Assembly (NCBI GenBank): GCA_046331705.1
Contig: JAXLQJ010000024.1
Coordinates: 1 to 64,000 of the forward strand
DNA: 64,000 nucleotides
DNA from: a bacterium
Lineage (GTDB): Bacteria > JADJOY01
Reading direction: 5' to 3'
In this document: in pieces, positions 1 to 56,897 of the stretch
Layout: each line of letters begins with the position of its first letter
How positions within the stretch are numbered: the stretch's first letter is position 1
Position numbers and translations under genes: made by a program
Notes under the pieces: model-generated
Database searches by the model: none
What the model saw: only the letters and a program-made list of their open reading frames with translations
Told to the model about the DNA's origin: nothing

Positions 1-249
1 CTTCCGTGGAGACGCGGAGATAGCCGATCGCTGGTACCGGGTGAGAGGGAATGTCGGGACCTCGGGGAGTGGTCTATTTGTACTACATCTAGACTACATC
101 GGCAAGACTGAAGGCCGGTGGACCTGTACCCCATGGGGTCCCGCGGGGTACACGAGTGGCCCGTGTTCGTACCGGGTATCCGCTACAGACCTACCGAGCG
201 TTGTGTGCGTGGCGCGGTGACCATCTCGCAGCCCCGATAAACGCGGGGC

Positions 250-289
250 TTGACGCCTCCGTCGCAGTAGTTATAGTTGCTGCAGCAAC
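250..289 (+). promoter_or_regulatory. Putative sigma70 promoter with overlapping perfect palindromic operator
   Basis: TTGACG (250-255), 16 bp spacer, TATAGT (272-277). The perfect 14-bp palindrome GTTGCTGCAGCAAC (276-289) overlaps the -10/start region, ~30 bp upstream of the AbrB-domain ATG. Confidence 0.55.
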
Positions 290-319
290 AGCAGCTTCAA
301 CCACTCGAGGGGCTTGAGA

Positions 320-832
320 ATGCGAACAAGAGCCGCGGTAATCGGAAACAGCGTTGGTATGGTCTTCCCCAAGGCCGTGGCCGAGGCAATCGGCATCTCA
401 CGGGACAGTGAACTCGAACTGACGATCCAAGGATCGGCGTTGACCATCCAGTTGATTGGAGCAGGACGGCCCTCCATCCGAACCATCAACTTCCATGATG
501 GCGGCGAGTTGGAGAAGCGCTTCACCGAGCTGGACGGTCTCCTGCGCACGATCTTCCCGGCGGAGCGTGTCCGGACGCTCGAGGGCAGTCTGAGCGTCAC
601 TGATAGCGGGGGGCGCGAGGTCCTGCTCAAGGTCTGTCTCGTGGGCCCCCGCGACACGCCCCGGATAGTGTTCGGCGTGCGTGCAGATCAGGACACCAGC
701 TGGAGCCCCGTCCCACTGCCCTGGTCCGTTCTCGTACGGGGTAAGCCGTTCGACTTGGCTGAGCGCGGCTTCTCGGACCCCTCGATCATGCGCGAGCTTG
801 AGGCAGTGGCTAAGGCTCTCCTCAACCGGTAG
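320..832 (+). CDS. AbrB/MazE/SpoVT-family DNA-binding domain protein with unknown C-terminal domain
   Basis: N-terminus 'AAVIGNSVGMVFPKAVAEAIGISRDSELELTIQGSALTI' fits the swapped-hairpin GNS..PK motif. ATG at 320 (ORF track starts at TTG 314). Confidence 0.7.
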   Translation: MRTRAAVIGNSVGMVFPKAVAEAIGISRDSELELTIQGSALTIQLIGAGRPSIRTINFHDGGELEKRFTELDGLLRTIFPAERVRTLEGSLSVTDSGGREVLLKVCLVGPRDTPRIVFGVRADQDTSWSPVPLPWSVLVRGKPFDLAERGFSDPSIMRELEAVAKALLNR

Positions 833-940
833 CGCGGCCTACCGCGAGGACGGTCGCGACGGGAGGACGGCCACCCGATTGGTGGTGTTAATTCGGATTC
901 ACCATACCGATCGACCAGGTCAGAACCTGACCCCACGCTG

Positions 941-1447
941 ATGGCGCATCGCTTGACACAGGGCGACATCGTGACGAAGAACGATCAGCCTTCCTTCGCC
1001 CAGACCGTCGACATGCTGATGAAGGAGTCAGATCGGGGCGCCCTCTTGGTTGGCATCGCTCTCCTTGATGACGCGCTGGTGGACCTTCTCAAGAAGCTGC
1101 TTCGCCTGGACAAGGAGGTACTCAGACTCTTCGACCCGAACATGCCCCTGGGCTCGTTCAGTTCCAGGATCGAGCTTGCTTGGTCGCTCAACCTTATTAA
1201 CGACCTTGTGCGGCGAGACCTGCACCTCCTCCGCAGGACCCGGAACGATTTCGCTCACCGTCTAGACGTGCTCGACTTCGACACGCCAGCTGTCGGGGAG
1301 CGGCTCCGAACGCTGAACATCCCTGCAGAAGTGCGAGGGACGCCCAACGCAGAGAGTCCCAAGGTCTGCTTCCGACTCTGCCTGATGAGCCTCTATCGAT
1401 ACATCATGAACCGAGTCGAGGGGCACATACCGCTCGGCCAAGAGTGA
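941..1447 (+). CDS. MtlR-like / HEPN-superfamily protein
   Basis: 'ESDRGALLV..ALLDDAL..LL', 'PLGSFSSRIELAWSL' and the Rx4H motif 'RNDFAH'. Confidence 0.75.
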   Translation: MAHRLTQGDIVTKNDQPSFAQTVDMLMKESDRGALLVGIALLDDALVDLLKKLLRLDKEVLRLFDPNMPLGSFSSRIELAWSLNLINDLVRRDLHLLRRTRNDFAHRLDVLDFDTPAVGERLRTLNIPAEVRGTPNAESPKVCFRLCLMSLYRYIMNRVEGHIPLGQE

Positions 1448-1624
1448 CTTCACTCGTCGCTAAGCCTTCGGTGGCCCGGCTCGCCGAGATTCCGCAGCCC
1501 GCTCACTGGCCTCGACGAGAAGGACATCGATGAGCGACCAGCCTTCACTGAGCTTCGGGAACACCACCGGCGCAGAGGGCCGCCCTCAGCGATACATCGC
1601 GCCTTTACTTCTACGGTTCTAGAT

Positions 1625-2530
1625 TTAGTCTACCTCGCGGCGCTTGATCCGAGCAGCGCGGCGGCGGATCTCCTCGATTCCACCTTCGATGCTCGTCGGC
1701 TTCGCGTAGAGCATGGAGCGCATTACTCGGCTCTTGGGGTTGTCTAGGCGGTTCAGGAAGCTCGCCCTTTTCCGGATTATCTCCTTCTCGACCTCTGCAA
1801 GTGGGGGCGGGACGCGGGGGTCTACGAAGACCTGGTCAATGTAGCTCGCCGCCTTGAAGCCGAGGTCGAGGAACCGATTCCCTCCGATCTCCTTGACCAG
1901 GGTCTTTTCGGTTAGTGGCGCTCCAGGGATCGCCACGATGAGACGCACTTCGTTCTCGTGCTTGAAGACCAACCGCTTAATCAGAAGCATCTGAGCGATC
2001 CGTTCGAGATCCGACCGCTCTTCAGGTCCCTCGGCAAGAATTGGCTCGACGGCCGGATTCATGAGCCGAGAGAAACGAGTCGCCAACTCCATGTCCGTCA
2101 CGTACTTCACCGGCCTCACGAACACCTCGGCTCGCATCCGCCCTTTGAGTAGCTCTTGCGTCTTGTCTCGCAACACTCCAACCGTCGTACGGATCCGTAG
2201 GGAGTCTGTGTTCGGCGAATAGATTCGCCACATCGCATCGCTCCGTTTGGCAAGTGTCCAGCACTGACAGAACACATTCGCCGGGCTGAAGCGAAGGGCC
2301 TTCCAGCGATCTGATGAATCGCTGAGTTTGGTGTTGAACACGAACCCGTCAAGCGGATCCTCCCAACTCATCGGATGGGGAAGGAGATTGGATGAACCGT
2401 CGAGGTGAGCGTAGAAGCGCGCACGAGGAACCACCCGATACACAAAGGTGTCATCGTTGATCGTGGCGCCTGGTTCCGCGGGTGCGTCGACCATCGAACT
2501 CCCCTTCAGCAAAGGGTGTGCGCGAGTCAT
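1625..2530 (-). CDS. DUF2971-family protein
   Basis: 'WEDPLDG', 'FCQCWT', 'SDAMWRIYS', 'LRIRTTV' and 'KR..FKHENEVRL' motifs. Confidence 0.75.
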   Translation of the reverse strand: MTRAHPLLKGSSMVDAPAEPGATINDDTFVYRVVPRARFYAHLDGSSNLLPHPMSWEDPLDGFVFNTKLSDSSDRWKALRFSPANVFCQCWTLAKRSDAMWRIYSPNTDSLRIRTTVGVLRDKTQELLKGRMRAEVFVRPVKYVTDMELATRFSRLMNPAVEPILAEGPEERSDLERIAQMLLIKRLVFKHENEVRLIVAIPGAPLTEKTLVKEIGGNRFLDLGFKAASYIDQVFVDPRVPPPLAEVEKEIIRKRASFLNRLDNPKSRVMRSMLYAKPTSIEGGIEEIRRRAARIKRREVD

Positions 2531-2715
2531 TGGACGGGCTTGGGTCCCGATGCTAGCAATGCCGTAGCCCTCACACCAGAGAACAGGTAGCGAATCTGGG
2601 CGGGGGCCAGCGGTCAGGCATCGGCCCGATCGTCTCTGAGCAGACTGCGATTGCGGTTCCGACTCAGCATCTCAGCTCCGAGATACACCGCACTTCCCAT
2701 CGGGACCGCGGCTCC

Positions 2716-3690
2716 TCACCTTTGAGACGAGTGCCGAACCGGGATCCGGGTCGCGGCCCTGATGAGAGCCTCATCACCCCGTTGATCGTACCTTTCGGTC
2801 GTCTGGACGCTGGCGTGGCCGAGGTGCGGCTGCACCGTCGCGAGATCCTCGCCCGCATCGAGCAGGTCCGAGGCACAGCTCCGCCGAAGATCGTGCGGCG
2901 AGAACGCGGGAACACGAGCCTGCCCGGCGCGACGGCGGCATAGCTCGAAGACGGCCTGCATGCTCAAGCGCGTCTCGACACGATCTTTCCCCGTGCCGCG
3001 TCACGGGCAGGAAGCGCGGTCTGATCTGAGCCGCGGATCGAGATCCAATCGCGGAGAGCGAGCTCGGCACCGTTGCCGATGAACACGACCTGCTGCTTGC
3101 CCTTCTTGCCGAGGACGACGAGCTCGCAGGTCTCGATTCCCATGAATCGAGATCGAGACCGACGGCCTCGGCGCGGCGAAGCCCACCGGCGTAGAGCACG
3201 CCCACGAGCGCAGCGTCGCGCTGGCCGATGACGCTGCCATCGAGGCAGACCCCAACTAGTGCGTGGAACTCAAGCCGGTGACAGCGCACGGCTACGAGGA
3301 AGCCGCTCGCCCCGCACTGACTTCATGGTCGACGACCCGCCGGTAGTCGTCGCCCTCGACGAGCCCGAGATTCCACGCGGCCTTCACGACCTCGCGGATC
3401 GCGACGAGGCTCTGGTTCGCGGCACCTCGGCTGTAGCGCTCACCGAGCCGAGCGCGAAGCGCCTGGACGTGCTGGAATCGGAGCTCGTGCCACAAACGCG
3501 ATCCGGGGACGAGAGTGCCGCCCCTCACCCACCGAGTCGACGAGCCCCGCGGCGACTCGGTTGAGGGCGGCATGCATCGCCCGCGTCGAGTTCGGGCGAA
3601 GGCCGCTCAAGTGGACGAAGACGCCATTCTGGGCGGGGGTGCTGGTGATCGGTACGAGCTCGAGATCGGCCGCGACACCGTGGTCGACGA
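2716..3690 (-). pseudogene. Frameshifted tyrosine recombinase/integrase
   Basis: Pieces lie in several frames: N-terminal 'VHLSGLRPNSTRAMHAALNRVA' and 'WHELRFQHVQALRARL...AAWNLGL'; box I 'RDAALVGVLYAGGLRRAEAVGL'; box II 'SPHDLRRSCASDLLDAGEDLATVQPHLGHASVQTTERYD'. The 5' limit is approximate. Confidence 0.85.
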
Positions 3691-3725
3691 CACGATCACG
3701 GGCTTCGACAGCCACCGAGACCTCG

Positions 3726-5651
3726 TCAAAGTTGCCTGCTGCCACTTGAGGGCCGATCATCAGCCAGCAGGTCTCTCAGCCAGTCAGCCCTCGCGCGGAG
3801 GTCGCCCAGAATACACCAGGGCAATGCGCGGGCGTCGAGCGTAGGCGCCGAATTCACAGCACAAGGGACGTCCGTGCACGTGCTGCCAGCTACCGGGCCG
3901 AACTCGACGCGGAACGGCCAGCTTTGTCCCGCGACCACCTCTCGAAGGTCGTTGAGTTCTTCGCCCACGACCGCCCGGAAGAACCCTTGCGCATGCAACT
4001 GATGCACAACGGTGCCGCGAGTCGCCAAGACTGGGTTTATCTGGACCACATCCTCCACTTGAAGATGCATACGCAGCGCTTGCAAGCTGTCGAGCACGTC
4101 ACGGAGATCATCCTCGGGACTCATCAAGGGCTTGCCCGCGAGCAAGAACACCCGGAGTCCGATGTTCATCGAGGTACGTCGATCGAGTAGAGCCTGGAGT
4201 TCGATCGGGCTGAAGGGCGAGCGGGTGACGTAACGCCGTACCGACGGGTCCATCGACTGGATTCCCACAGACACGCGAATCCTGCAGCCAGGCGGGAGGG
4301 CGGCCGCGAGCACCGAGATGGCACGCGCCGTCACGAACTGGGGGAGCGACTCGATCTCGAGCTGGTGAAGCGGCCATCGGGACACTTCTTTGACCAGCGC
4401 GATTCGCTCTACCGGTGTGAGCTCCCGGTCGTCGAGAAAGGACCCATCGGTGTAGATCGCGACGCGGCGGACCTCCTCCGCAGCATGCTGCCTGATGCCT
4501 TCAAGGACCTCATTGATTGTCGCCTTCGCGTGAGCGAGCACCGGCAACATGCAGAAGCTGCAGCTCGGCACGCGACACCCGCCGGTTCCAACGATGAGCT
4601 TCAGGCGGCCGCGTGACGCATCGAATGACTCGTACCGTACAGCTTGGGTCGAACGGTCGAGGCTCACGTCGCGTGAGGGCGGGCGAGCCGCGATCTCGGC
4701 GCCGTCTTCGGTCGCGATCAAGCGGCCGATCGTGGTGGATATCAGTCCACGGGGGTCAATCTCAGCCTGCTCGACGACAACACCGCCCGACTGCAGGTGC
4801 GCTTCGAGCTCGTCCAGTTCGGAGCCGCTTCGCCACAGGATACTCGTTACGTCCGCACCCATGACCTCCGGCCAGAGCTTCGCCGTCCTGAGATGGAGCC
4901 TATGCAGCACCGCTCGGATCGAGAGGTCGGGCCACGTTACTTCGTCGTTCGCTCTGAGGCCCAACGTCGCGGACACGGCGTTTCGGAAGCGAATGAGCTC
5001 TTGCACGATCTCCGGAGCCTCCGAGCCCGCCGCACGCAACGCGCAGATGCCGGGACTACCTTCGGCGAAGGGAACGCGCCGCATCTGGTTCAGCAGCGCA
5101 ATGGGCAGCACGACCGACAGGTGGACGAGCGCGTAGGTGGCGACAGCGGGCCGTGACTCCCGGCACGCCTCGCGCAAATCAAGTAACCCGAGGATCTCCG
5201 CAGTGTGGAAGCGAGCCCTGCCGGCGCACGCTTGATCGCTCGTGATGAGACACTTTACGCGGTCGAGCCAGCACCGTTGCTCGCGCAGGGTGATCGTCGC
5301 CTCGTCCCGCACGGCGATCGCCGTCGCCAAGCGGTAGGCCCAGGGCGCACGCGCCCCCAGATGATGCAGGGACCTCAGAGTGACGTGGTTGGCATCAAGA
5401 TCGACGTCGCCATGCCGGAGGCGTCGGTAGTGTTCTGTGACCGGAGCCTTCCGGGCCTGGGTGACGAGGATCAGATCGATGTCGCTGTCGGCCCGCGCCA
5501 TTCCAAGCGCGCGGCTTCCGAACACCAAGGTCGTCAGGAGCGCCTGCTCGTCAATGCTGAACGCCTCTAGCGCGGTGCAAATGCAGTCGCGGAGTGCGCC
5601 GGGCTCTAGCCCTCGGGAATCGAACGCCGGATGCACCATCGTCACTTCCAC
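3726..5651 (-). CDS. Pol-beta-type nucleotidyltransferase fused to a RaSEA/Elp3-like radical SAM domain
   Basis: N-terminal 'LVFGSRALG...DSDIDLILV' (GS..DxD). C-terminal 'GGCRVPSCSFC' (CX4CX2C), 'IYTDGSFLDDRE', 'IESLPQFV', 'VSVGIQS', 'FLLAGKP'. Alternative ATG start at 5639. Confidence 0.8.
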   Translation of the reverse strand: MEVTMVHPAFDSRGLEPGALRDCICTALEAFSIDEQALLTTLVFGSRALGMARADSDIDLILVTQARKAPVTEHYRRLRHGDVDLDANHVTLRSLHHLGARAPWAYRLATAIAVRDEATITLREQRCWLDRVKCLITSDQACAGRARFHTAEILGLLDLREACRESRPAVATYALVHLSVVLPIALLNQMRRVPFAEGSPGICALRAAGSEAPEIVQELIRFRNAVSATLGLRANDEVTWPDLSIRAVLHRLHLRTAKLWPEVMGADVTSILWRSGSELDELEAHLQSGGVVVEQAEIDPRGLISTTIGRLIATEDGAEIAARPPSRDVSLDRSTQAVRYESFDASRGRLKLIVGTGGCRVPSCSFCMLPVLAHAKATINEVLEGIRQHAAEEVRRVAIYTDGSFLDDRELTPVERIALVKEVSRWPLHQLEIESLPQFVTARAISVLAAALPPGCRIRVSVGIQSMDPSVRRYVTRSPFSPIELQALLDRRTSMNIGLRVFLLAGKPLMSPEDDLRDVLDSLQALRMHLQVEDVVQINPVLATRGTVVHQLHAQGFFRAVVGEELNDLREVVAGQSWPFRVEFGPVAGSTCTDVPCAVNSAPTLDARALPWCILGDLRARADWLRDLLADDRPSSGSRQL

Positions 5652-7261
5652 GTTGGTGGATATGCGTACTTCGTGACGGTGGTGCTCTGGAATTCGAGGA
5701 GCGCTGCACTGTCCACTCTCCTAGAGTCGGAGATGGGTGCCCACGCCGTGGCAAGCCTTTCGTCCGTCGGGCGCTTAATGGTCCCGAGGCTCCGGGCGAA
5801 CTCGAACACTTCAGCAATAGTGGCCCCGTCGCACACGCGTGCGGCGCGCGCGACGTTAGACAGGTTGGGTCTGGCTATCCTAAGGAGGTGCTCTCGTTCC
5901 TGGACGTTCGGGAGTCCCACAGGCAGGACGTAGTCGAAGCGCCCGGGACGGCGGCCGGCAGGATCAAGCTTTTCGACGTGATTCGTCGCGAGGATCGGCA
6001 GCACGGACATTGCGTCGTGGAACTCCTGCAGTTCGGGCAGCATCACGTTCGTCAACCACCCAGCTTGAATATCCCCTGCCTGACGGTCCACGATCAGCAG
6101 CTCCAATTCGTCGAACAGCACGACGCACTTCGAGAGGTCGTGCAGTTGTCGGAAGAGGGTCTTGATTGTTCGGACCAGATTTGGGCTGCCGTCCACGAGG
6201 AAGTCCGCCGTCGAAAGCCGCACGAAATCCCAGCCCAGGCGTTTGGCGATCGTCTGAGCAATCGTCGTCTTTCCGGTGCCTGGCGGACCGAACAAGACAA
6301 TGCCGTTCCCAGTGGACTTGCCCAGACACCCCCCGTCCGCGACTGGCTTTAATAGGCGCTCCTCAAGCCGTTCCGGCCACCTGTAACCGCCGCACACAAG
6401 CCCGTCGTAGCTGACGTCTGGTGTCGGGACGCGGGCGTCAAACCTGTGCTTCGCCGCGCGGTCGACCTGGTCTTGGCAGAAGCGCTCGAGCTCGAACAAG
6501 AAGACCGCGACCAGGGCATTGAACCAAGCCTCGTACCTTCCGTGGTCCGGATAGAGATCCGACTGGAAGACCCGGACGACCTTTCCCGTCCCCGTCTCCA
6601 ACCTCCGTGACCTTGCCTCCAGCCAGTCAAGCGTCGCGTGGAAGTGGTGCCCGTGGTCGACCAACAAGGGACGCACGCCATCGCACTGCAACAGGCGCAC
6701 GAGCGCCTCGATTCCGGAGCAGCCCACGGCGTCGGTCCCCACGCGTACGATGGTCGACTGGGCTACAGTGGTAAGCGAGGAACCATCCAGGCACAGCCCC
6801 AAGACGCTCTTGCGTTCCTGGGGAAGGAGTGGGCCATGACTGAACTCCGCGTCTGAGACCAAGGCCAGCGCGAGCAGACAGCGGTCGATCGCTAGCGCGT
6901 CGCCGAGCGCGTTTCGCGAGATCATTCGATCGATGTCCCGCTGAGCCTGCTCGCCAACCCGGACCTCGATGTCGATGGGTAACGGATCCAGCTTGCGCAG
7001 TCCCAGTGCGGCGCGAAGGACGAGCGGTAGGTACCGCGACAAGGCAGCGGAGGTGTCGTCTCTGAGCCAGGCCTGCAGCTCCCGCCTTGCACGGTCGCGC
7101 AGACTCTCATCGATCTGGTTCCACACCGACGACGGCAGGTCGAGGACAGCACGCCCGGTGGAAAACACCGCAGCCTCGAGGTTGTCACTCCCGAACGAGT
7201 TCCAGGGTGGCCCGGAATCGATCACCTTCTCCGCCAGGGTAGCGAGGCAGATGGCCTCCAA
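5642..7261 (-). CDS. AAA+ ATPase (classical clade) with helical N-terminal region
   Basis: Walker A GPPGTGKTT, Walker B VVLFDE, sensor-1 ATN, second region of homology 'LDPAGRRPGRFD'. The TTG start is uncertain. Confidence 0.85.
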   Translation of the reverse strand: MEAICLATLAEKVIDSGPPWNSFGSDNLEAAVFSTGRAVLDLPSSVWNQIDESLRDRARRELQAWLRDDTSAALSRYLPLVLRAALGLRKLDPLPIDIEVRVGEQAQRDIDRMISRNALGDALAIDRCLLALALVSDAEFSHGPLLPQERKSVLGLCLDGSSLTTVAQSTIVRVGTDAVGCSGIEALVRLLQCDGVRPLLVDHGHHFHATLDWLEARSRRLETGTGKVVRVFQSDLYPDHGRYEAWFNALVAVFLFELERFCQDQVDRAAKHRFDARVPTPDVSYDGLVCGGYRWPERLEERLLKPVADGGCLGKSTGNGIVLFGPPGTGKTTIAQTIAKRLGWDFVRLSTADFLVDGSPNLVRTIKTLFRQLHDLSKCVVLFDELELLIVDRQAGDIQAGWLTNVMLPELQEFHDAMSVLPILATNHVEKLDPAGRRPGRFDYVLPVGLPNVQEREHLLRIARPNLSNVARAARVCDGATIAEVFEFARSLGTIKRPTDERLATAWAPISDSRRVDSAALLEFQSTTVTKYAYPPTWK

Positions 7262-8669
7262 CCGACCGAACTCAAGGCGGCTTCGCTCTTGTGCAACTCA
7301 GCAGCCTCAAGCAGCACAGTGCGTGACAGCATCCCCTACACGTAGGTCCGCGCAGCTTCCGCGTCGAGCAGACGCACGACATGCTCGTCGCGCAACCAGA
7401 GCTCGAACATGTCCGATGGATTGGAGTTAAAGCCCTCGCACGCGCCTCACCAGATCTTTCATCAGCCCTCAGTGCCAGCCTATCTCCACTCGTTTAGCTG
7501 CTAGTCCTGCTGTAGGATTGAAACAGGAGTCTTGCTCGTGCGGGAGGGGAGGGGTGAGGTGAGCAGTGACCCAGATGGGGCCAGTAGTATTCGGCGGGAC
7601 ACGTGGCCGGCGTGCCGTCAAGGACGGCTATACGTCTATGAGCAAGAGGCCATCGACTCGTGCCTGTCGAATCTGCCGAGCTGGCGGGTGCCGACGTCTG
7701 CGTGTCGGGATCCGGGGATCAGGCCTTCAACGCCTTTGCATACGGTGCGAACGCGTGACCCTTTCGACATCAATTCCCACGCGAAGGCCTGGTCGCTCTC
7801 AAGCGCGCCGCCATTGAAACCTGGACCTCGAGTCGTTTCTGGCGTTCTTCGGGGATTCGATCCGAGGGCGCCGCCGTCCCTGGAGTTCACAGCTCTACGC
7901 GCGACTCCGGTCTGCAACCTCACGGCTGAGACACGGCGCTTCTGGGATCAGGCCTATGCGTGCTGTGCCGGCTCCGGAGCGCGACTAGCGGCGTCCGGCC
8001 TGTTCCACCTGCGGCCGTTCCACAGGCTACCACTGGGCCTGTTCGTCGATACCTCCGATCGAACACGGAGTATGCGCGCACACCGACACCTCCTAGGCGA
8101 GGGCGTGCTCGAGACGATCGACGCGACCTGCTCGAGCTATCCGGGCGGGTCGCTCGCGAATTCGATCTCGTCTCCCTATCCAACGTGCCGAATCTTCTTC
8201 TGCGGGCCGGCTTCTCCACGAGCCCACGTCGCCGCATTTGGCTTGTTCTGTGCCGCCAGTCTGCGGCCGCTCCTTGAAGGAGGGGCAGGAGCATCGCCAT
8301 GTACGCCTACTCTGCGTCCGTGTATCCGAACGACGACGTGCGGTTTCTTCCTCCTCTCTCTCACATGCGAAGCAGCAGCGCGCTCTCGGGGGCACGCCGG
8401 GCTTGCGCCTGTCGGAGGTTCGCTTCAGGGGCTGCCAGGGTGGGCGGGACCTCATGATCCGACTGCAGCGAGTTGCGGGACGCCCGGGTCCAACGTGCGC
8501 CCTCGCGGTGCCGTGCAGCCTGCGGCGGACAGGTGCGCCAAACGCCGCTTGAATCGCGTAGATGGTGAGGCAGCCCTCGCTCGCCAGCAGGTGAAATGGC
8601 GCCACCCGGCGGTCGTCGACGCTCGTCACGTCCCAGCAGTACCGACGGTACGGCTCCAAGTATCCGAGC

Positions 8670-9073
8670 CGATCGCGGTGCTGGTGACGCCCAGCTCGAA
8701 GCCCGCGGCCGAGGCCTACGTCGACAAGCTCTTTGCGGCTGCGGCGGACGCCGACCCCGAGATTCCGCCCTTCGCGGGTCTCGCCCGCTACCACACGTCC
8801 GACGCACTCGCCTCGCTCCGCTGGACGCTCGGAGAAGCCAAGGGCAAGCCCGAAGCGGCCCTTCTGCTCGCGCCCCTCGGCGCGGCGCTCCACGACGAGC
8901 GTCCCATGGTGCGTCGCGAGCTCACCTCGGATCTCGGCGTGCTCGGCCCCCTCGCCCTCCCGTTGCTGCCGCAGCTGCTCGACGGGTTCATCAAGAAGAC
9001 GCAGGAGACCCCCGACTCGGATCTCAAGCTGGCACGAGATCGGCGTCGCAGGCTCGTGGGAGGTGGACGATGA
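8670..9073 (+). pseudogene. Chimeric remnant: HEAT-like fragment joined to the C-terminal tail of a RelE/Gp49-type toxin
   Basis: 'LGAALHDERPMVRRELTSDLGVLGPLALPLLPQL' (HEAT-like) runs into 'LLDGFIKKTQETPDSDLKLARDRRR'. Its stop overlaps the antitoxin ATG (ATGA). Confidence 0.6.
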
Positions 9074-9366
9074 AGCGGAAGCACGTGGGCTCGAAGCTCG
9101 ACGAGCTGCTCGAAGAGGACGGCACCCTCGGTCCCGCCACCGAGATCGCGCTCAAGCGCGTGATCGCCTGGCAGATCGAGCGGGCCATGGCGAAGAGCCG
9201 GATGACCAAGACCGAGATGGCCCGACGCATGAGAACGAGCCGTGCAGCACTCCATCGACTGCTCGATCCGGCGAACCCATCGGTGACGCTCAGGACCATG
9301 GATCGAGCGGCAGCGGTGCTGGGGAAACGGCTGCGCGTCGAGCTGGTGGACGGGAAGGCAGCGTGA
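9070..9366 (+). CDS. XRE/HTH antitoxin (HigA-like)
   Basis: 'KHVGSKLDELLEEDG...KRVIAWQI..AM....TKTEMARRMRTSRAALHRLLDP.NPSVTL.T..RAA..LGKRL' matches the antitoxin family usually paired with Gp49-type toxins. Confidence 0.85.
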   Translation: MKRKHVGSKLDELLEEDGTLGPATEIALKRVIAWQIERAMAKSRMTKTEMARRMRTSRAALHRLLDPANPSVTLRTMDRAAAVLGKRLRVELVDGKAA

Positions 9367-9681
9367 CGGTCGGCTTGGCGACGGGATCGCCGAGCGCGGC
9401 TCTGCACGGCGGTCAGCCACGCGGGACTCGTCGCAGTCGAGGACGCCGGCCGGGCTTCTCCCTCAGCACCGCGAGCGCCAGGTCGATGTGCAGTAGAGCC
9501 GCGGAGCTCTCGTTGCGAGCGAGAGCCTTCTTCGCGCCTTCGAGCGCGGTGCGCAGCTGTGACAAATTTGTAACAAGCGGGCCCTGTTCGGGCCTGTTCA
9601 GCCCTACCTGGCCGTCTCCACCAGGTCCGAAATTGCTGGCTTTTGTTGGCTCGCGTAGGCTGGCGTACGGCGCCGAATCGC

Positions 9682-9704
9682 TTCGATTCCCGCCGCCTCC
9701 ACCA
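9682..9704 (+). mobile_element. Displaced tmRNA (ssrA) 3' end; probable attR of an integrated island
   Basis: TTCGATTCCCGCCGCCTCCACCA is a T-loop, 3' T-stem, acceptor strand CGCCTCC (pairs with the tmRNA 5' GGGGGCG including G3.U70) and ACCA. The 5' T-stem strand is absent. Confidence 0.75.
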
Positions 9705-9749
9705 CTTGACCGGCTGGAATCATTCGATTCCGGAGCCGCCGCACCAGCC

Positions 9750-9940
9750 GCTCTCGCCTCGACCTTGAGCCCGGGAGCCTTGTGGAGGTCGACGACCTCC
9801 AGGCGCGGGTCCGCGACCGGCTCTCCAGCGCTGGACACGGTGTCGCCGACGCGGAACCGTTGCTTCGTCTGCGCCGCCGTTCCGATACCGACGGTGAAGT
9901 TCCGCGGCTCGGGTATCCCCCGAATTACCGGCGAGTGATA
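9750..9940 (-). pseudogene. Fragment of a hypothetical protein
   Basis: Protein-like stretch 'FTVGIGTAAQTKQRFRVGDTVSSAGEPVADPRLEVVDLHK' with no credible start or end, abutting the att site. Confidence 0.35.
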
Positions 9941-10071
9941 CGGCGTGGGCGCGTTGGAGGATCTTGTCGTCCCAACGGATGCCGATGTATTCGAGGCCCA
10001 TGCCCAACGACCGAGCCCCGAGCACTCGCCGCGCACGGAGACCCAGCTCCACTCCGTCCGGCCGGCACACC

Positions 10072-11001
10072 GTGGCGAGCGTCGAGGACCCAGTCGGCGC
10101 CGAGATTGCGGAGCGATTCAGCAAGATTCGCTGCTACGAGCGAGGCGACGTTCGTGCGCCTCACAAGCCGCTCCTGCTGCTGCTTGCACTTGCTCGTGTT
10201 CAGCGACGCGAATCAAGGCTCATGCCCTACCGCGCCCTCGAGCCTGAGCTGCGGTCCCTTCTCGAGCAGTTCGGTCCACCGACGAAGCAGCAAGCACAGC
10301 CGGAGCTTCCGTTCTGGAAGCTGCAGAACGACGACCGTCTCTGGGAGGTCGACAAACATGCCGAGCTGCTCGAACTGACCCGAGATCGGAAGAAGCCGGA
10401 CTTCATCCCTGCGCCGCTGCTACGAACACAGAACCCGGACGCCGGCTTCCCGCCGGACTTGGATGCAGCGCTTCGGCAACGGCCTGCGTTGGTGAACGCG
10501 ATCGCTCAGAGCATTCTCGAAGCGAATTTTCCGCCGTCGCTGCATGAGGGGATTCTCGATGCGGTCGGCTTTCCTTGGGCGCCGGTGTCTGGACCGAGGC
10601 AACAACGAGACCCCGACTTCCGCCGCGTCGTCCTCCGAAACTACGAGTACCGATGCGCCGTCTGTGGCTACGACGGTCGCCTTGGCTCATCCCATCTCGG
10701 CATCGAAGCAGCCCACGTCCAGTGGCATGCGTTCCACGGTCCCGACGCTCCCGACAACGGGATCGCTCTCTGCACGTTTCACCACAAGGCGCTCGATCTT
10801 GGCGCGATCGGTTTGGACGAGTCGCGACGAATCCTTGTCTCCAGCGAGGTGAACGGAAGCAACGAGGTGAACTACCTCCTCCTTCGCCACGCGAACCGGT
10901 CGCTCCACCCGCCCCAGGCTGGGACTGCCCCACCTGCGATTCCTCACATCCAATGGCACGGTCGCGAAGTCTTCCGAAAGCCAGCTCGATCGAGCACCTG
11001 A
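10072..11001 (+). CDS. SBD-HNH type IV restriction endonuclease (phosphorothioated-DNA-binding family)
   Basis: 'RAPHKPLLLLLAL' and 'PELPFWKLQND..WE' (SBD-like), then 'RDPDFRRVVL.NY.YRCAVCG', 'EAAH', 'NGIALCTFHHKALDLG' (HNH). GTG start at 10072 is inferred. Confidence 0.8.
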   Translation: MASVEDPVGAEIAERFSKIRCYERGDVRAPHKPLLLLLALARVQRRESRLMPYRALEPELRSLLEQFGPPTKQQAQPELPFWKLQNDDRLWEVDKHAELLELTRDRKKPDFIPAPLLRTQNPDAGFPPDLDAALRQRPALVNAIAQSILEANFPPSLHEGILDAVGFPWAPVSGPRQQRDPDFRRVVLRNYEYRCAVCGYDGRLGSSHLGIEAAHVQWHAFHGPDAPDNGIALCTFHHKALDLGAIGLDESRRILVSSEVNGSNEVNYLLLRHANRSLHPPQAGTAPPAIPHIQWHGREVFRKPARSST

Positions 11002-11103
11002 CCCAGCCCTACAGCGTCCCTTCAGGTGCGAGTTGACGCGCGTGGTGCGGTGATTCAGAGTGCGGCGCCCCGATCGCGGGACGGTTCTCGCGCGAGATCT
11101 CTC

Positions 11104-12957
11104 GTGACTGTCGACGCCTTGCGCAGCCGCCGCCCCGCTCACCTCGCCCGAGTGGTGGTGTTGCTGGCGGGCCTTTGCGCGCCAGCGTCGGCGTCGGTCG
11201 CCGGCGAATCTCCCGCCACCGACGCGCCCGCGGATTCGCTGCCTGCGAACACCGGCGCTCCCGCCGACGCCGCCACCGCGGCGGGTGGCGCGAGCCCCGC
11301 GCGCGCGCCGCTACGTTACGACTTGAATGACGACATCCGTCTCGAGCTTGGCGGCTACTACCGCTTCCGTGTCACCGATCGCACGGAGATGCTGCTCTCG
11401 GAGATTCCGTTCGGCGCCCGCGCCGGCGAACGGGTGGTGTCCGAGAGCCAGGTTTCCACCGAGCACCGCTTGCGGCTGGAGCCGGTGGCGACCTTCTACG
11501 ACCAAGCGAGCGTGCACCTTCAGCTCGATGTCTTCACGGGGATGCTCTCGGGCGACACGTCGGGCCGCGAGTACATGTACTTCGCGCAGCCGCCGCAGCG
11601 CCTGAGCGAGATCGACGGCGGCGACTTCGACGACTTCGTGCCGACGCATCTTCGTCAGATCTACGGCCAGTGGAACTCGCCGGCGGGGCGCTTGGTGCTC
11701 GGCCGCACCGGCAGCGATTGGGGGCTCGGGCTCTTGGCGTCGAACGGTGGCGACGCACCGCGTACCCACGGGCGCAACGACTTCGGCGACGCGTACTACG
11801 GCGACATCGTCGACCGCGCGCTCTTCGCCACCAAGCCGCTCAGCGTGGTGCAGGCACTCGCGGGCGGGCAGCCGAACGCAGACGCAGACCCGCTCGTCCT
11901 CGCCTTCGCCTACGACTGGAACGTGGTGCGCGACAGCCTGGTGCGCACGGAGCAAGACAAGCGCGATCTGCTCCGCGCTTCCACGCCTGGTAGCACCATC
12001 GAGCTCGTCGCCGATCCCGAGGACGACGATGCCCACCAGTGGATCGGCGCGGTGCGCGTCGACACCCAACCGTTCGAGGGCGGCTTCTACGCGGCGCGCC
12101 GCGAGCTCGAGCGGCAAGACGTGCTGGTCCCGCCCGGCAGTCGCCCGCGCGACGAGTTCCTGCGGGTCTGGGCGTTCGACGCGTACGCGAAGCTCGACGC
12201 GCGCCCGGCTTTCCTCGGCGGCGGCTCGCTCTACGCGGAAAGCGAGCTGGCGTTCGTCACCGGCGAGACCAACCTCACGGTGTCACGCGTGCTCCAGTCG
12301 CCCAACACGCCCTTCCCCGCGAGCGACGTCGAGCAACTCGGCGTGATCGCCCGCGGCGGCGTGCTCCTCGACTCCTTCGACCTGATCCTCGAAGGCGGCT
12401 ACGCCTCGGGCGACGCCGATCCCTTCGACGACGAGGTCCGAAACTTCCGCTTCCATCCCGACCTCAACGTCGGGCTGATCCTCTTCGAGAGCCTGCTCGC
12501 CGAGACCTCGGCGACCTCCGCGCGAAACGCCGTGCTGGTCTTCGGCGAAGGCGGCCCGGTGCGAACGCTTGGCGCGGATCTGCTCGCCACCAACGGCGGC
12601 GTCACCAACGCAGTCTTCTTGAGCCCGCGGGTGCGGATACGCCCGTGGTCCACACTCGAAGGCGTGCTCGGCGTGCTGTGGGCGCGTACCGCCACCGATT
12701 ACGTCGATCCCGCCAACGACTTCATCCAGAGCGGGGCGTTCGGGCTCTTCAATCCGTTCGGCGCGCCGTCCTCGAATCGCGAGCTCGGAGTCGAGATCGA
12801 TCTCGCGCTGCGCTACACGTTCGAGCCCACGTGGTCGAGCGTCGAGGTGGGCCTCGAATACGGCCATCTCTTCCCGGGCAACGTCTTCGAGAACGTCGAC
12901 GGCGATCGCATGGACGACGTCGACCTCGTCCGCGGGCGCCTCACCTTTCGGCTCTGA
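11104..12957 (+). CDS. Outer-membrane beta-barrel protein (alginate-export/porin-like)
   Basis: Signal-like hydrophobic segment, amphipathic strands, 'GRTGSDWGLGLLASNGG', C-terminal strand 'RGRLTFRL'. Start uncertain. Confidence 0.65.
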   Translation: MTVDALRSRRPAHLARVVVLLAGLCAPASASVAGESPATDAPADSLPANTGAPADAATAAGGASPARAPLRYDLNDDIRLELGGYYRFRVTDRTEMLLSEIPFGARAGERVVSESQVSTEHRLRLEPVATFYDQASVHLQLDVFTGMLSGDTSGREYMYFAQPPQRLSEIDGGDFDDFVPTHLRQIYGQWNSPAGRLVLGRTGSDWGLGLLASNGGDAPRTHGRNDFGDAYYGDIVDRALFATKPLSVVQALAGGQPNADADPLVLAFAYDWNVVRDSLVRTEQDKRDLLRASTPGSTIELVADPEDDDAHQWIGAVRVDTQPFEGGFYAARRELERQDVLVPPGSRPRDEFLRVWAFDAYAKLDARPAFLGGGSLYAESELAFVTGETNLTVSRVLQSPNTPFPASDVEQLGVIARGGVLLDSFDLILEGGYASGDADPFDDEVRNFRFHPDLNVGLILFESLLAETSATSARNAVLVFGEGGPVRTLGADLLATNGGVTNAVFLSPRVRIRPWSTLEGVLGVLWARTATDYVDPANDFIQSGAFGLFNPFGAPSSNRELGVEIDLALRYTFEPTWSSVEVGLEYGHLFPGNVFENVDGDRMDDVDLVRGRLTFRL

Positions 12958-13024
12958 CCGGCATCATTCACCAACGGCGCGCTGCGGCCGCGACGGAGCG
13001 CGGCCCTCCAGGGCGATTGCGCGT

Positions 13025-55721: not shown

Positions 55722-56897
55722 TCAGCTCCGTTTTCGGTGCTTTCCCGGCTTCCCGGGCTGCGGGGACGTACGCGGCTCGTCCTCGCGGCGGTACTTCGCG
55801 AGGAACTCGCGCTTCATCGTCCCGAACCGACCGGCCTCGATCGCAGCGCGGATGCGCTCCATCAGCCGCTGATAGAAATGCAGGTTGTGGATGCTCGCGA
55901 GTGTCGCGAAGACGGGCTCGCCGGCGTAGAGGAAGTGGCGCAACGCCAGACGCGAGAAGCTCTTGCAGGTGTAGCAATCGCACGACGTATCGATGGGATA
56001 GCGATCCTTTCGATACTTCTTGTCGCCGATCCGGAGCTTTCCCTCGGCCGTGAAGAGGGTTCCGTTCCGGGCGTAGCGCGTGGGAATGACGCAATCGAAC
56101 ATGTCGATGCCGCGCTCGACCGCCTCCAGGATGTCCTCCGGCAAGCCCACGCCCATGAGGTAGCGCGGCAGATTCTCCGGCAGCAGCGGCGCCGTGGCGG
56201 CGACCACCGAGCACATGAGACCGAGCCCTTCGCCCACGCTCACGCCGCCGATGGCGAAGCCGTCGAACGGCAGCGATGTGATCTGCTCGGCGGCGCGGGC
56301 ACGCAGCTTCTCAAAGGTTCCGCCTTGCACGATCCCGAACAGGAACTGGTGCGGCGCCAGCTCGACGGAGAGACAGCGCTGCGCCCACCGAAAGGTGCGT
56401 TCCACCGAGCGCTCCACGTAGCGATACTCCGCCGGGTAGCCGACGCATTCGTCGAACGCCATGACGATGTCTGCGCCGAGCTGGCGCTGGATCGCCATGG
56501 AGCTCTCGGGCGTCATGCGCGTGGGCGCCGCGTCGTCGCCGTAACGGAACGTGGCGCCGCTCTCGTCGATCTCCGTGCCCGGGAGGCTGAACACCTGAAA
56601 GCCGCCCGAGTCGGTGAGGATGGTGCGGTTCCAGCCGGTGAACGCGTGCAGCCCGCCCACCCGCGCCACGCGCTCGGCGCGCTCCTCGAGCGACATGTGG
56701 AAGGCGTTCGCGAGCATCACCTGAGCGCCGGTCTCCATCACCTGCGCCGGCGTGAGCGCCTTCACCGAGCCCAGCGTGCCGACGGGCATGAAGGCGGGCC
56801 CGTCGACCACGCCATGGGTGGTGCGAAAGCGCGTGCGACGCGCGCCCGACGAGGGGTCGGTGGCCAAGAGCTCGAAGCGGATGTCCTTGCGGGGCAT
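55722..56897 (-). CDS. tgt: tRNA-guanine(34) transglycosylase
   Basis: 'FMPVGT', 'TDSGGFQ', 'FDEC', 'GIVQGG', 'GGVSVG', 'YLMGVG', 'DMFDCV.PTR', zinc ligands 'CDCYTC...HN'. Confidence 0.96.
   Translation of the reverse strand: MPRKDIRFELLATDPSSGARRTRFRTTHGVVDGPAFMPVGTLGSVKALTPAQVMETGAQVMLANAFHMSLEERAERVARVGGLHAFTGWNRTILTDSGGFQVFSLPGTEIDESGATFRYGDDAAPTRMTPESSMAIQRQLGADIVMAFDECVGYPAEYRYVERSVERTFRWAQRCLSVELAPHQFLFGIVQGGTFEKLRARAAEQITSLPFDGFAIGGVSVGEGLGLMCSVVAATAPLLPENLPRYLMGVGLPEDILEAVERGIDMFDCVIPTRYARNGTLFTAEGKLRIGDKKYRKDRYPIDTSCDCYTCKSFSRLALRHFLYAGEPVFATLASIHNLHFYQRLMERIRAAIEAGRFGTMKREFLAKYRREDEPRTSPQPGKPGKHRKRS

Follow-up and report, generated by a model that had tools for sequence, protein, structure and literature searches.

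What is the function of a RaSEA-like radical S-adenosylmethionine (SAM) domain that occurs in a bacterium, fused to a nucleotidyltransferase? The question is raised by a gene at 3726-5651, on the minus strand, of the 64,000-nucleotide stretch analysed here (positions 1 to 64,000 of contig JAXLQJ010000024.1, assembly GCA_046331705.1), which we call the window. The original prediction covered 3726-4640, that is, residue 338 through the stop, and described a RaSEA-like radical SAM domain with an atypical CX4CX2C cluster motif, lying in a bacterial island and joined to a nucleotidyltransferase (NTase). This observation is confirmed, the fusion included. The open reading frame (ORF) is intact, all residues that are invariant in an alignment with its homologues (A1) are present, and its sequence points to an intact enzyme with two activities, from a family that is rare and has no name. 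The features of the fusion gene are as follows.

3726-5651, minus strand: whole NTase-helical-radical SAM fusion, a single open frame of 641 codons (641 amino acids) from GTG 5651
5379-5570, minus strand: Pol-beta-type nucleotidyltransferase core, residues ~28-91, with G45-S46, D57xD59 (codons 5475-5483) and D86
4692-5378, minus strand: all-helical domain, residues ~92-320, resembling the C-terminal helical domain of kanamycin nucleotidyltransferase (KNTase)
3852-4640, minus strand: radical SAM partial-barrel domain, residues ~338-600, with the Cys triad C359/C364/C367 at codons 4551-4577
3729-3851, minus strand: C-terminal tail, with the remnant of a Cys-rich motif (C592, C597) and a conserved LPW..LG..R..W segment

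The ATG at 5639 is a likelier start than the GTG at 5651, since it lies 2 nt past the TGA of the upstream gene and has GGAAG in front of it. Alignment A1, which holds 16 sequences (the fusion and its homologues), was used both for the invariance of residues and for an AlphaFold 2 model of the fusion. The model has a mean predicted local distance difference test score (pLDDT) of 81.5 and a predicted TM score of 0.82.

The N-terminal half has the motifs and the fold of the Pol-beta superfamily (MNT/KNTase type). G45-S46, D57xD59 and D86 are invariant in A1, as are W104, Y106, R107, W128, R145, Y173, P194 and P200 of the helical domain. The family matches are weak: Pfam Polbeta (E 2.8e-4) and NTP_transf_2 (E 1e-3) are both under their gathering thresholds, and the NCBIfam models MntA (E 2.1e-4) and HalB also match weakly. 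A Foldseek search with residues 1 to ~320 of the model gave ANT(4')/KNTase at E 1.3e-7, with a TM score of 0.57 on the target, and Hailong HalB at 1.1e-5. The fused NTase was thus correctly read in the original prediction. ANT(4'), MntA and HalB share with the fusion the NTase core followed by a helical C-domain, and the GS and DxD motifs. However, they are only 12-16% identical to the fusion, no Pfam or NCBIfam score reaches its cut-off and, unlike the fusion, none of the three is joined to a radical SAM domain.

In the C-terminal half of the translation of 3726-5651, we located all six strings that the original prediction had quoted: GTGGCRVPSCSFC (residues 355-367), IYTDGSFLDDRE (399-410), IESLPQFV (433-440), VSVGIQS (460-466), FLLAGKP (502-508) and QINP..ATRGT (537-547). 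The cluster motif is CRVPSCSFC, C359-x4-C364-x2-C367, and the Cys triad and the SAM-site motifs are invariant in A1. Pfam Radical_SAM matches at E 7.4e-5 with 23.4 bits, below its gathering threshold of 29.5, and residues 344-601 of the model superpose on solved radical SAM barrels with Z 14-16. From the Cys motif with an aromatic residue before the last Cys, the SAM motifs and the partial TIM barrel, the domain is predicted to belong to the radical SAM superfamily.

Are both halves likely to be functional? The FGS..DxD motif is present in 33 of 34 representatives of the fused clade that contains the window's protein (fusedA), the remaining record being cut at its N terminus, and a second fused clade (fusedB) retains it in 23 of its 24. 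GGCx4Cx[FY]C is present in all 34 and in 22 of the 24, respectively. Since the NTase and Cys motifs are kept in nearly all of these 58 fused representatives, both halves look active as enzymes, and neither looks like a relic domain.

The family is small. A word-indexed search of 5.8 billion clusters gave 15 full-length homologues of 599-670 amino acids with 31-42% identity, and a search for shorter stand-alone close relatives gave one fragment of 281 amino acids only. Among 185,579 species genomes, two of 59 pattern matches are full-length homologues, both in metagenome-assembled genomes of Hyphomicrobiales, and in metagenome contigs 13 of 220 pattern matches are such homologues. The only relatives found by tblastn in plasmids are two distant stand-alone proteins. 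The fusion was not found in 60 other genomes searched around the source genome, including the four of the same genus and the one of the same family. In databases, these proteins go by 'hypothetical protein' or 'radical SAM enzyme (TIGR01210 family)' and have no other name. In the literature searched, neither an NTase-radical SAM fusion nor its pairing with the ATPase considered below was found to be described; subscription journals and supplementary tables lay outside this search, and architectures of this kind could be listed in the supplements of Kaur et al. 2020. The component domains are known, but their combination, the clade and the partnership are undescribed.

Relationship of the radical domain to RaSEA

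The original prediction proposed a comparison with the hidden Markov models (HMMs) of TIGR01210, the RaSEA family, and of Elp3. TIGR01210 is indeed the best NCBIfam match (E 3.6e-21, residues 349-560), and Elp3 is second (E 3.5e-4). The TIGR01210 score is 75.7 bits, however, against a cut-off of 212.15. For TIGR01211 (Elp3), the score is 19.2 bits, whereas at least 350 are required, and Pfam gives no GNAT match, so the protein is not a member of Elp3. RaSEA is thus the nearest named family by HMM. The two share the motifs GSF..E, ES.P.F, G.G.(Q/E)(S/T), LL..KP and NP...GT, as well as a non-canonical spacing of the cluster Cys. The RaSEA motifs given in the original prediction are found at the aligned columns of proteins above the RaSEA cut-off, as YTSGSFLD..E or FTSGSFLDDQE and as ESRPEF(I/V). 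Furthermore, G69, S70, F71, E76, E100, S101, P103 and G129 (domain numbering) are invariant across the window's protein, the RaSEA-type proteins and the CX4 proteins.

A profile of the radical domain was built from nine sequences (A2, the window and related loci) and compared with 1.84 billion representative proteins. It gave 1216 matches at E <= 1e-3, 512 at 1e-10 and 66 at 1e-30. The sorting by Cys spacing, the tree and the family counts were drawn from the 150 best of these matches, of which about 58 are fused representative clusters. Among the 150, the Cys spacing sorts the groups cleanly.

Proteins above the RaSEA cut-off (n = 10): C.WA...GGC.MC, with 7-9 residues between the first two Cys; TIGR01210 273-453 bits
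Stand-alone proteins of 330-400 amino acids: GCSVPTCTMC (CX4CX2C); TIGR01210 143-167 bits, below the cut-off
Fused proteins: CX4CX2C; TIGR01210 36-76 bits

The CX7-9CX2C spacing was seen in 10 of 10 tested proteins above the cut-off. The tree was a quick maximum-likelihood tree (LG+G4, SH-aLRT support only) of 141 domain rows, retained if they covered the Cys motif and at least 150 profile positions; 34 and 24 of them are NTase-fused, and 68 are short or stand-alone CX4CX2C proteins. The window's clade, fusedA, consists of 34 fused rows and four short records (support 98), and fusedB of 24 fused rows and three short records (support 100). The two join at support 89, within the CX4CX2C group and next to a stand-alone clade of 49 rows (support 98), and the proteins above the RaSEA cut-off fall outside the CX4CX2C clade.

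The canonical cluster motif of radical SAM enzymes is CX3CX2C, and in this respect the spacing was rightly called atypical. However, since the fused clades are nested in the CX4CX2C group with the above-cut-off RaSEA proteins outside, the sequences indicate that CX4CX2C is a clade trait, the rule in its own lineage and different from the CX7-9CX2C of RaSEA. Non-canonical Cys spacings are on record for the ELP3/YhcC subgroup in the available part of PMC9477430. The term RaSEA-like likewise holds for the nearest named family and the common core motifs, but not in the strict sense. Identity with RaSEA is ruled out by the score of 75.7 against 212.15 bits, the CX4 spacing, the degenerate C-terminal Cys motif and the position on the tree. 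The lost motif is CxxC...CxC, with four Cys in RaSEA; the fusion is down to C592 and C597, and of these only C592 is invariant in A1.

The substrate of RaSEA is preQ0-Lys in tRNA, an adduct made by ArcS, and RaSEA is active only in complex with ArcS, as given in an excerpt of PMC11298593. In this it is physically coupled with the enzyme that makes its substrate adduct, and the NTase of the fusion is likewise joined to the radical domain. The two differ in the Cys spacing (CX7-9 and CX4), in the partner (ArcS and a fused NTase), in their clades, which are separate, and in the bacterial host of the fusion. The fusion is predicted not to make archaeosine. To our knowledge, RaSEA-type chemistry has so far been found only on archaeal tRNA.

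The best PDB sequence match of the domain profile is queuine lyase, 6P78 (E 0.0026, 20 bits), which also has CX4CX2C in the printed alignment. A protein above the RaSEA cut-off likewise matches only 6P78 in the PDB (E 0.0022), so that there is no solved RaSEA with which to compare the fusion. Queuine lyase acts on a 7-deazaguanine compound, according to the part of PMC7694415 available. It differs from the fusion in being a stand-alone protein of 251 amino acids without an NTase, it is missing from the 50 best rows of both structural searches, and phmmer with the whole fusion against the PDB gave no match at E <= 1. By structure, the top match is Elp3 (Z 16.1, root-mean-square deviation 3.5, 243 residues aligned), although its lead over viperin, MqnE and RlmN is under about 1 Z unit. 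Elp3 is in the same SFLD subgroup, ELP3/YhcC, but has an acetyltransferase domain, which the fusion lacks. The first radical SAM row in the Foldseek list is AprD4 with paromamine (E 4e-6).

The fusedB proteins (P0078-P0160) also have the NTase and helical N-half, as the N-half HMM matches 24 of 24 at E 4e-19 to 6.8e-6. They have 570-675 amino acids and the cluster motif CKTPTC.FC, and many have a C-terminal C-x(8-13)-C-x2-C, which is lost in the window's subgroup. At one fusedB locus (L018), there is an IS4/5 transposase fragment and an AAA_22 protein nearby. The sister clade of stand-alone type has a fusion of its own, in that its CX4CX2C domain is fused in P0055 (582 amino acids) to a C-terminal DVU_1556-family methyltransferase. 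Another stand-alone CX4CX2C protein, P0186 (GGCSVPTCTMC), is encoded at 8887-10002 of locus L022 on plasmid pFRL5 of Streptomyces sp. F8. The operon of P0186 also encodes a P450, a serine hydroxymethyltransferase, a GT9 protein, a carbamoyltransferase, a GDSL esterase and a heptose-1-phosphate adenylyltransferase, and by its gene content looks like a sugar or nucleoside natural-product cluster.

The ATPase partner and the variant loci

What accompanies the fusion? The gene directly upstream encodes an AAA ATPase, the 5' end of which is disrupted in the window.

5642-7261, minus strand: upstream operon partner, an open frame of 539 amino acids with an N-domain (residues 1-263) and a classical-clade AAA domain
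7262-7470, minus strand: displaced remnant of the first ~65-75 codons of the ATPase gene, in other frames and with an in-frame stop

The TGA of the ATPase gene lies 2 nt before ATG 5639 or, if GTG 5651 is the start, the frames overlap by 10 nt. On this basis, the ATPase and fusion genes are predicted to form a translationally coupled two-gene operon, with the fusion second. The ATPase matches Pfam AAA at E 2.6e-24, and in its model (pLDDT 87.9), the AAA domain has Z 20.4 to p97 D2 and 19.9 to spastin. Residues 1-263 are helical, with a class II terpene synthase as best match (Z 13.1, 215 aligned); the modelled N-domain appears alpha/alpha-toroid-like, and a match between helical domains shows little beyond this arrangement. 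A complex prediction for the whole fusion (A1) and residues 1-300 of the ATPase scored 0.00 in both runs, which says nothing either way.

The ATPase family is equally rare, with 14 full-length homologues of 35-43% identity. For eight of the 14, the longest contig equals in size that of a fusion homologue (10278, 4911, 34280, 5376, 15163, 15717, 7202 and 6785), and with equal size as the proxy, we infer that the two genes are co-located on these eight contigs. At one locus (L013), the adjacency of the ATPase and the fusion was seen directly, with 39% identity over 305 amino acids. On the tree, the ATPase-linked fusion members are distributed over the basal branches of the subclade that contains the window's protein.

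Known systems with a related ATPase were considered. The ATPase has weak PADLOC and NCBIfam matches to IetA (1e-17), IteA (1.6e-16) and TRIP13 of CBASS (7.6e-10), with which it shares a classical-clade AAA domain, but its toroid-like N-domain is family-specific. An IetAS/IteAS system is rejected, as the IteA score is 60.5 bits against a cut-off of 510 and no protease was found beside the ATPase in library scans of the neighbours; a HORMA partner is also absent. The accessible text of PMC7159879 (Kaur et al. 2020) describes conflict systems with a 'distinctive radical SAM' effector, thought to be peptide-modifying, beside AAA proteins, and defines 'FtsH ternary' systems by MoxR, vWA and a protein with two FtsH-type AAA domains. 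Membership in the latter is rejected as well, since the N-domain of the ATPase is helical and not a second AAA domain, and there was no MoxR or vWA match among the neighbours scanned.

The homologues of the ATPase have 65-75 N-terminal residues more than the open frame in the window. We searched a profile of this lacking part over the six frames of 7150-7600. Upstream of the ORF, the minus strand matches profile positions 12-54 in a frame other than that of the ORF, and the match runs through an in-frame stop (14.3 bits, E 1.4e-5). Positions 66-88 match in the frame of the ATPase ORF, and there is a start-like stretch in a further frame. Contigs of activated-sludge or wastewater metagenomes (public runs) are identical to the window across pieces between 3751 and 7087. 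A 400-nt contig from another study, with a depth of 3.2, has three small indels, at 7272, 7313 and 7354, and four substitutions. By our own frame arithmetic, these indels carry the upstream frame into the ORF frame, free of stops and at the length of the homologues, and because of this an intact ATPase allele probably exists elsewhere. The allele in the window would then be either broken by pseudogenisation or locally mis-assembled.

Nine of 15 related loci have, after the fusion, a gene in convergent orientation that encodes a TPR protein of 386-440 amino acids. After merging of near-duplicates, these nine represent five lineages (L001/L007, L002/L010/L012, L008/L009, L011 and L006). The N-half of the TPR protein is glycosyltransferase-like by weak signs, namely Atlas values of 0.97-0.98 to GT2+TPR clusters and Pfam GT2 matches at E 0.03-0.13 in three of four proteins. 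A TIR-nSTAND1-FGE-sulfatase protein of 935-987 amino acids stands alongside in L001, L002, L007, L008 and L009, and as a fragment at the contig edge in L010. The trio has been inserted among housekeeping genes that are unrelated to it, nadA/nadB in L001 and cytochrome b in L002, and the L006 module has a tRNA gene as its neighbour, the only Rfam element found across nine related loci. The fusion members with TPR and TIR-STAND partners form one nested clade (support 85). The gene content thus indicates a derived subclade in which the ATPase is exchanged for the TPR protein and the TIR-STAND-FGE protein. No TPR partner was found in the source genome.

Other loci have other neighbours. A group III iron-dependent alcohol dehydrogenase gene is directly upstream of the fusion in L013, L014 and L017 (three of the 15 loci). 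In L015, the fusion is directly followed, at 1139-3001 on the plus strand, by a gene for a 620-amino acid protein with a methylthioadenosine/S-adenosylhomocysteine nucleosidase-like (PNP_UDP_1) domain (E 6.7e-12, below the cut-off), which could serve in the clearance of 5'-deoxyadenosine or be a nucleoside-directed effector. The alcohol dehydrogenase, the nucleosidase-like protein and the DXD glycosyltransferase that neighbour the fusion at other loci were not found in the window.

Possible functions of the fusion enzyme

The reading that we tentatively favour, by analogy with ArcS and RaSEA, is that of a two-step enzyme of a conflict module, which would nucleotidylate an acceptor and then remodel it by radical chemistry to a modified nucleotide acting as a poison or signal. 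The conserved catalytic motif of the fused NTase fits such a two-step enzyme. The NTase would transfer a nucleotide from an NTP to an acceptor bound by the helical domain, or would grip the acceptor through its nucleotide; the acceptor would most likely be a nucleoside-, nucleotide- or sugar-like molecule. The radical domain would then cleave SAM reductively, and the 5'-deoxyadenosyl radical would take a hydrogen from the adduct and so drive a C-N or C-C cleavage or a rearrangement, following the logic of ArcS and RaSEA. The product would be a modified nucleotide that serves as a poison or signal against invading elements, and the AAA ATPase might gate or remodel the fusion enzyme. The original prediction suggested a nucleobase or nucleotide adduct, possibly made by the NTase, as the substrate. 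A nucleoside-type substrate is favoured because the named relatives of the radical domain (RaSEA, Elp3 and MnmL/YtqA by NCBIfam names, and queuine lyase) act on tRNA bases or deazapurines, and a role in immunity is favoured by the conflict-type neighbours.

Prokaryotic viperins are radical SAM enzymes that make chain-terminating nucleotides, and nucleotide-acting radical SAM enzymes such as these are one of the few cellular routes to antiviral small molecules. The analogy with the fusion is functional only, in that radical SAM chemistry would be applied to a nucleotide for defence: the viperins belong to another radical SAM subgroup by sequence, have neither an NTase nor an AAA partner, and gave no match for the fusion in the Pfam, NCBIfam or PADLOC scans.

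Several observations weigh against this two-step conflict enzyme. The barrels of viperin (Z 15.6), MqnE (15.0) and RlmN (14.9) are within about 1 Z unit of that of Elp3, so the structure does not discriminate the subgroup, and the sequence match to queuine lyase is weak. The NTase fold is closest to that of aminoglycoside nucleotidyltransferases, a Streptomyces plasmid carries a stand-alone CX4CX2C relative within a gene cluster of sugar type, and the KNTase fold together with the alcohol dehydrogenase, glycosyltransferase-like and nucleosidase-like neighbours at other loci would be just as compatible with small-molecule chemistry. Apart from generic NTase or AAA hits, there is no match to the PADLOC models of known defence systems. 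No viral copy was found either: none of 25 pattern matches in viral contigs is a relative, and tblastn against phages gave no match. The co-location with the ATPase in the eight cases above rests on equal contig sizes as a proxy, and the ATPase gene of the window is disrupted at its 5' end, so the module may not work here.

A wider proposal is that the toroid-AAA ATPase and the fusion are the core of an undescribed immune or conflict system, with the TPR/TIR-STAND-FGE loci as its variant, and that a single polypeptide makes its output in two steps, either a nucleotide with a new radical modification or a new nucleotidylated metabolite. We regard this as possible but doubtful. If true, it would mean that enzyme chemistry not seen before, and perhaps a further defence system, had been found, in which bacteria use the logic of ArcS and RaSEA for defence. 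The family itself would represent a sister clade of RaSEA that carries an NTase in the same chain and has an AAA ATPase of its own as partner and, in one branch, a TIR-STAND protein. The two-gene form of the family is small enough for direct testing, and the catalytic residues are conserved throughout the small family. For annotation, the label 'TIGR01210 family' on bacterial CX4CX2C proteins should not be taken to mean archaeosine synthesis.

Could the target be RNA? The NTase might act on the 3' end or a 2'-OH of an RNA and the radical domain might modify a base in the same RNA, altering or disabling translation during conflict. tRNA nucleotidyltransferase toxins and CCA-adding enzymes act on RNA ends, and RaSEA, Elp3 and MnmL modify bases. 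Judged by their NCBIfam names, all named relatives of the radical domain work on tRNA bases (TIGR01210, TIGR01211 and TIGR01212), the top structural match is to Elp3 bound to tRNA, and an NTase of MNT/Pol-beta type in a defence island would fit as well. However, the Pfam and NCBIfam scans recognised no RNA-binding domain, the NTase half is nearest in fold to small-molecule nucleotidyltransferases, and the operon region has neither a tRNA gene nor an Rfam element. We consider an RNA-directed effector unlikely.

The fold of the NTase half (ANT(4') as its best Foldseek match) and the AprD4 match of the radical half would also suit a tailoring or inactivating enzyme, which would attach a nucleotide to a hydroxyl group of a metabolite of sugar, aminocyclitol or nucleoside type and follow this with a radical dehydration or rearrangement, in secondary metabolism or antibiotic modification and not in immunity. 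The sugar-type operon of P0186 on pFRL5, the alcohol dehydrogenase directly upstream at three of 15 loci and the glycosyltransferase-like TPR partner point the same way. Yet the family occurs as two- or three-gene modules between housekeeping genes and not in long biosynthetic clusters, the AAA ATPase and TIR-STAND partners are not biosynthetic, and the structural ranks of the radical SAM enzymes are tied. A small-molecule role seems rather unlikely to us.

Since the 5' end of the ATPase gene is out of frame, the module may be decaying in the source genome. The stronger form of this idea, in which the ORF is intact but the module is already an inactive relic in a decaying island, seems improbable to us. 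It would account for the first ~65-75 codons of the ATPase being out of frame with a stop, for the other-study contig that differs there by three indels and is identical elsewhere, and for the adjacent integrase being split between frames. On the other hand, the fusion retains every invariant residue, the body of the ATPase, 539 codons, is open and conserved, and the indels could be a local assembly error, the comparison contig itself having a depth of only 3.2.

In a protein-directed reaction, a protein or peptide would be AMPylated by the NTase, fed in or released by the AAA unfoldase and modified by the radical domain. This would be in keeping with the weak match to MntA, which AMPylates its toxin, and with a classical-clade AAA partner of the protein-unfolding kind (Z 20.4 to p97). 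A putatively peptide-modifying radical SAM effector also occurs in the AAA-containing conflict systems of PMC7159879, as far as its available text describes them. But there is no candidate peptide or toxin gene conserved beside the pair, the radical domain has no peptide modifiers among its relatives, and the MoxR, vWA and double FtsH-type AAA proteins by which that text characterises such systems were not seen here. We judge a protein target quite improbable.

That the fusion is a genuine RaSEA orthologue, acting on a 7-deazaguanine-lysine adduct in an archaeosine-type reaction, is largely refuted and has hardly any probability left: TIGR01210 is the best family match and the core motifs are in common, but the score is 75.7 against 212.15 bits, the spacing is CX4 and not CX7-9, the protein falls outside the above-cut-off clade, and the TGT-family gene in the window is a canonical Tgt (456 bits), with 28 bits for the ArcS model against a cut-off of 440.

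The surrounding island

From the contig end to ~11 kb, the GC content at third codon positions (GC3) of clearly coding genes is 0.71-0.78, whereas the next gene, at 11026-12957, a flanking core gene, has 0.87. With the absence of the fusion from the related genomes described above, this upholds the bacterial island of the original prediction, and we conclude that the locus is a horizontally acquired low-GC3 island with defence genes. A scan of 3200-7700 found no promoter-like site and one terminator-like site on the plus strand, which is below the mean of 2.4 in shuffled sequence. Rfam detected no riboswitch or other element at E <= 0.1 in 1-13000, and there is no tRNA gene in the window.

Just downstream of the fusion, at 2716-3289 on the minus strand, a tyrosine recombinase is split between frames, a degraded integrase. 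Positions 104-167 of Pfam Phage_integrase match at 2782-2970 (46.3 bits), and positions 18-48 match in the frame of 2774-3289, followed by low-complexity text. A DUF2971 protein is encoded at 1625-2530 on the minus strand and matches the PADLOC candidate PDC-S31 (E 5.9e-48). On the other side of the operon, at 9964-11001 on the plus strand, lies the gene of a restriction endonuclease that binds phosphorothioated DNA (NF045808, 312 bits against a cut-off of 180; Pfam HNH_2). Between the operon and this gene, 7532-9938 on the plus strand holds two long overlapping ORFs of 513 and 401 amino acids, without a family match and with indecisive GC3, and opposite to them, at 8093-8893 on the minus strand, a 266-amino acid ORF has a short PNKP_ligase match (E 6.1e-8).

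The genome has two full-length TGT-family genes (PF01702), the one in the window at 55722-56897 on the minus strand and another at G000:C1:266592-267650, with an open frame of 604 amino acids. The former, the canonical Tgt, is flanked by an rRNA methyltransferase-like gene and a RluA-family pseudouridine synthase gene; it is 50 kb from the fusion, and no link between them is shown. Near the contig end, a gene for a protein of MazE-like antitoxin fold (314-832, plus strand) is followed by an ORF of 168 amino acids (941-1447, plus strand) with a weak match to the MltR family, and the two may be a toxin-antitoxin or regulator pair.

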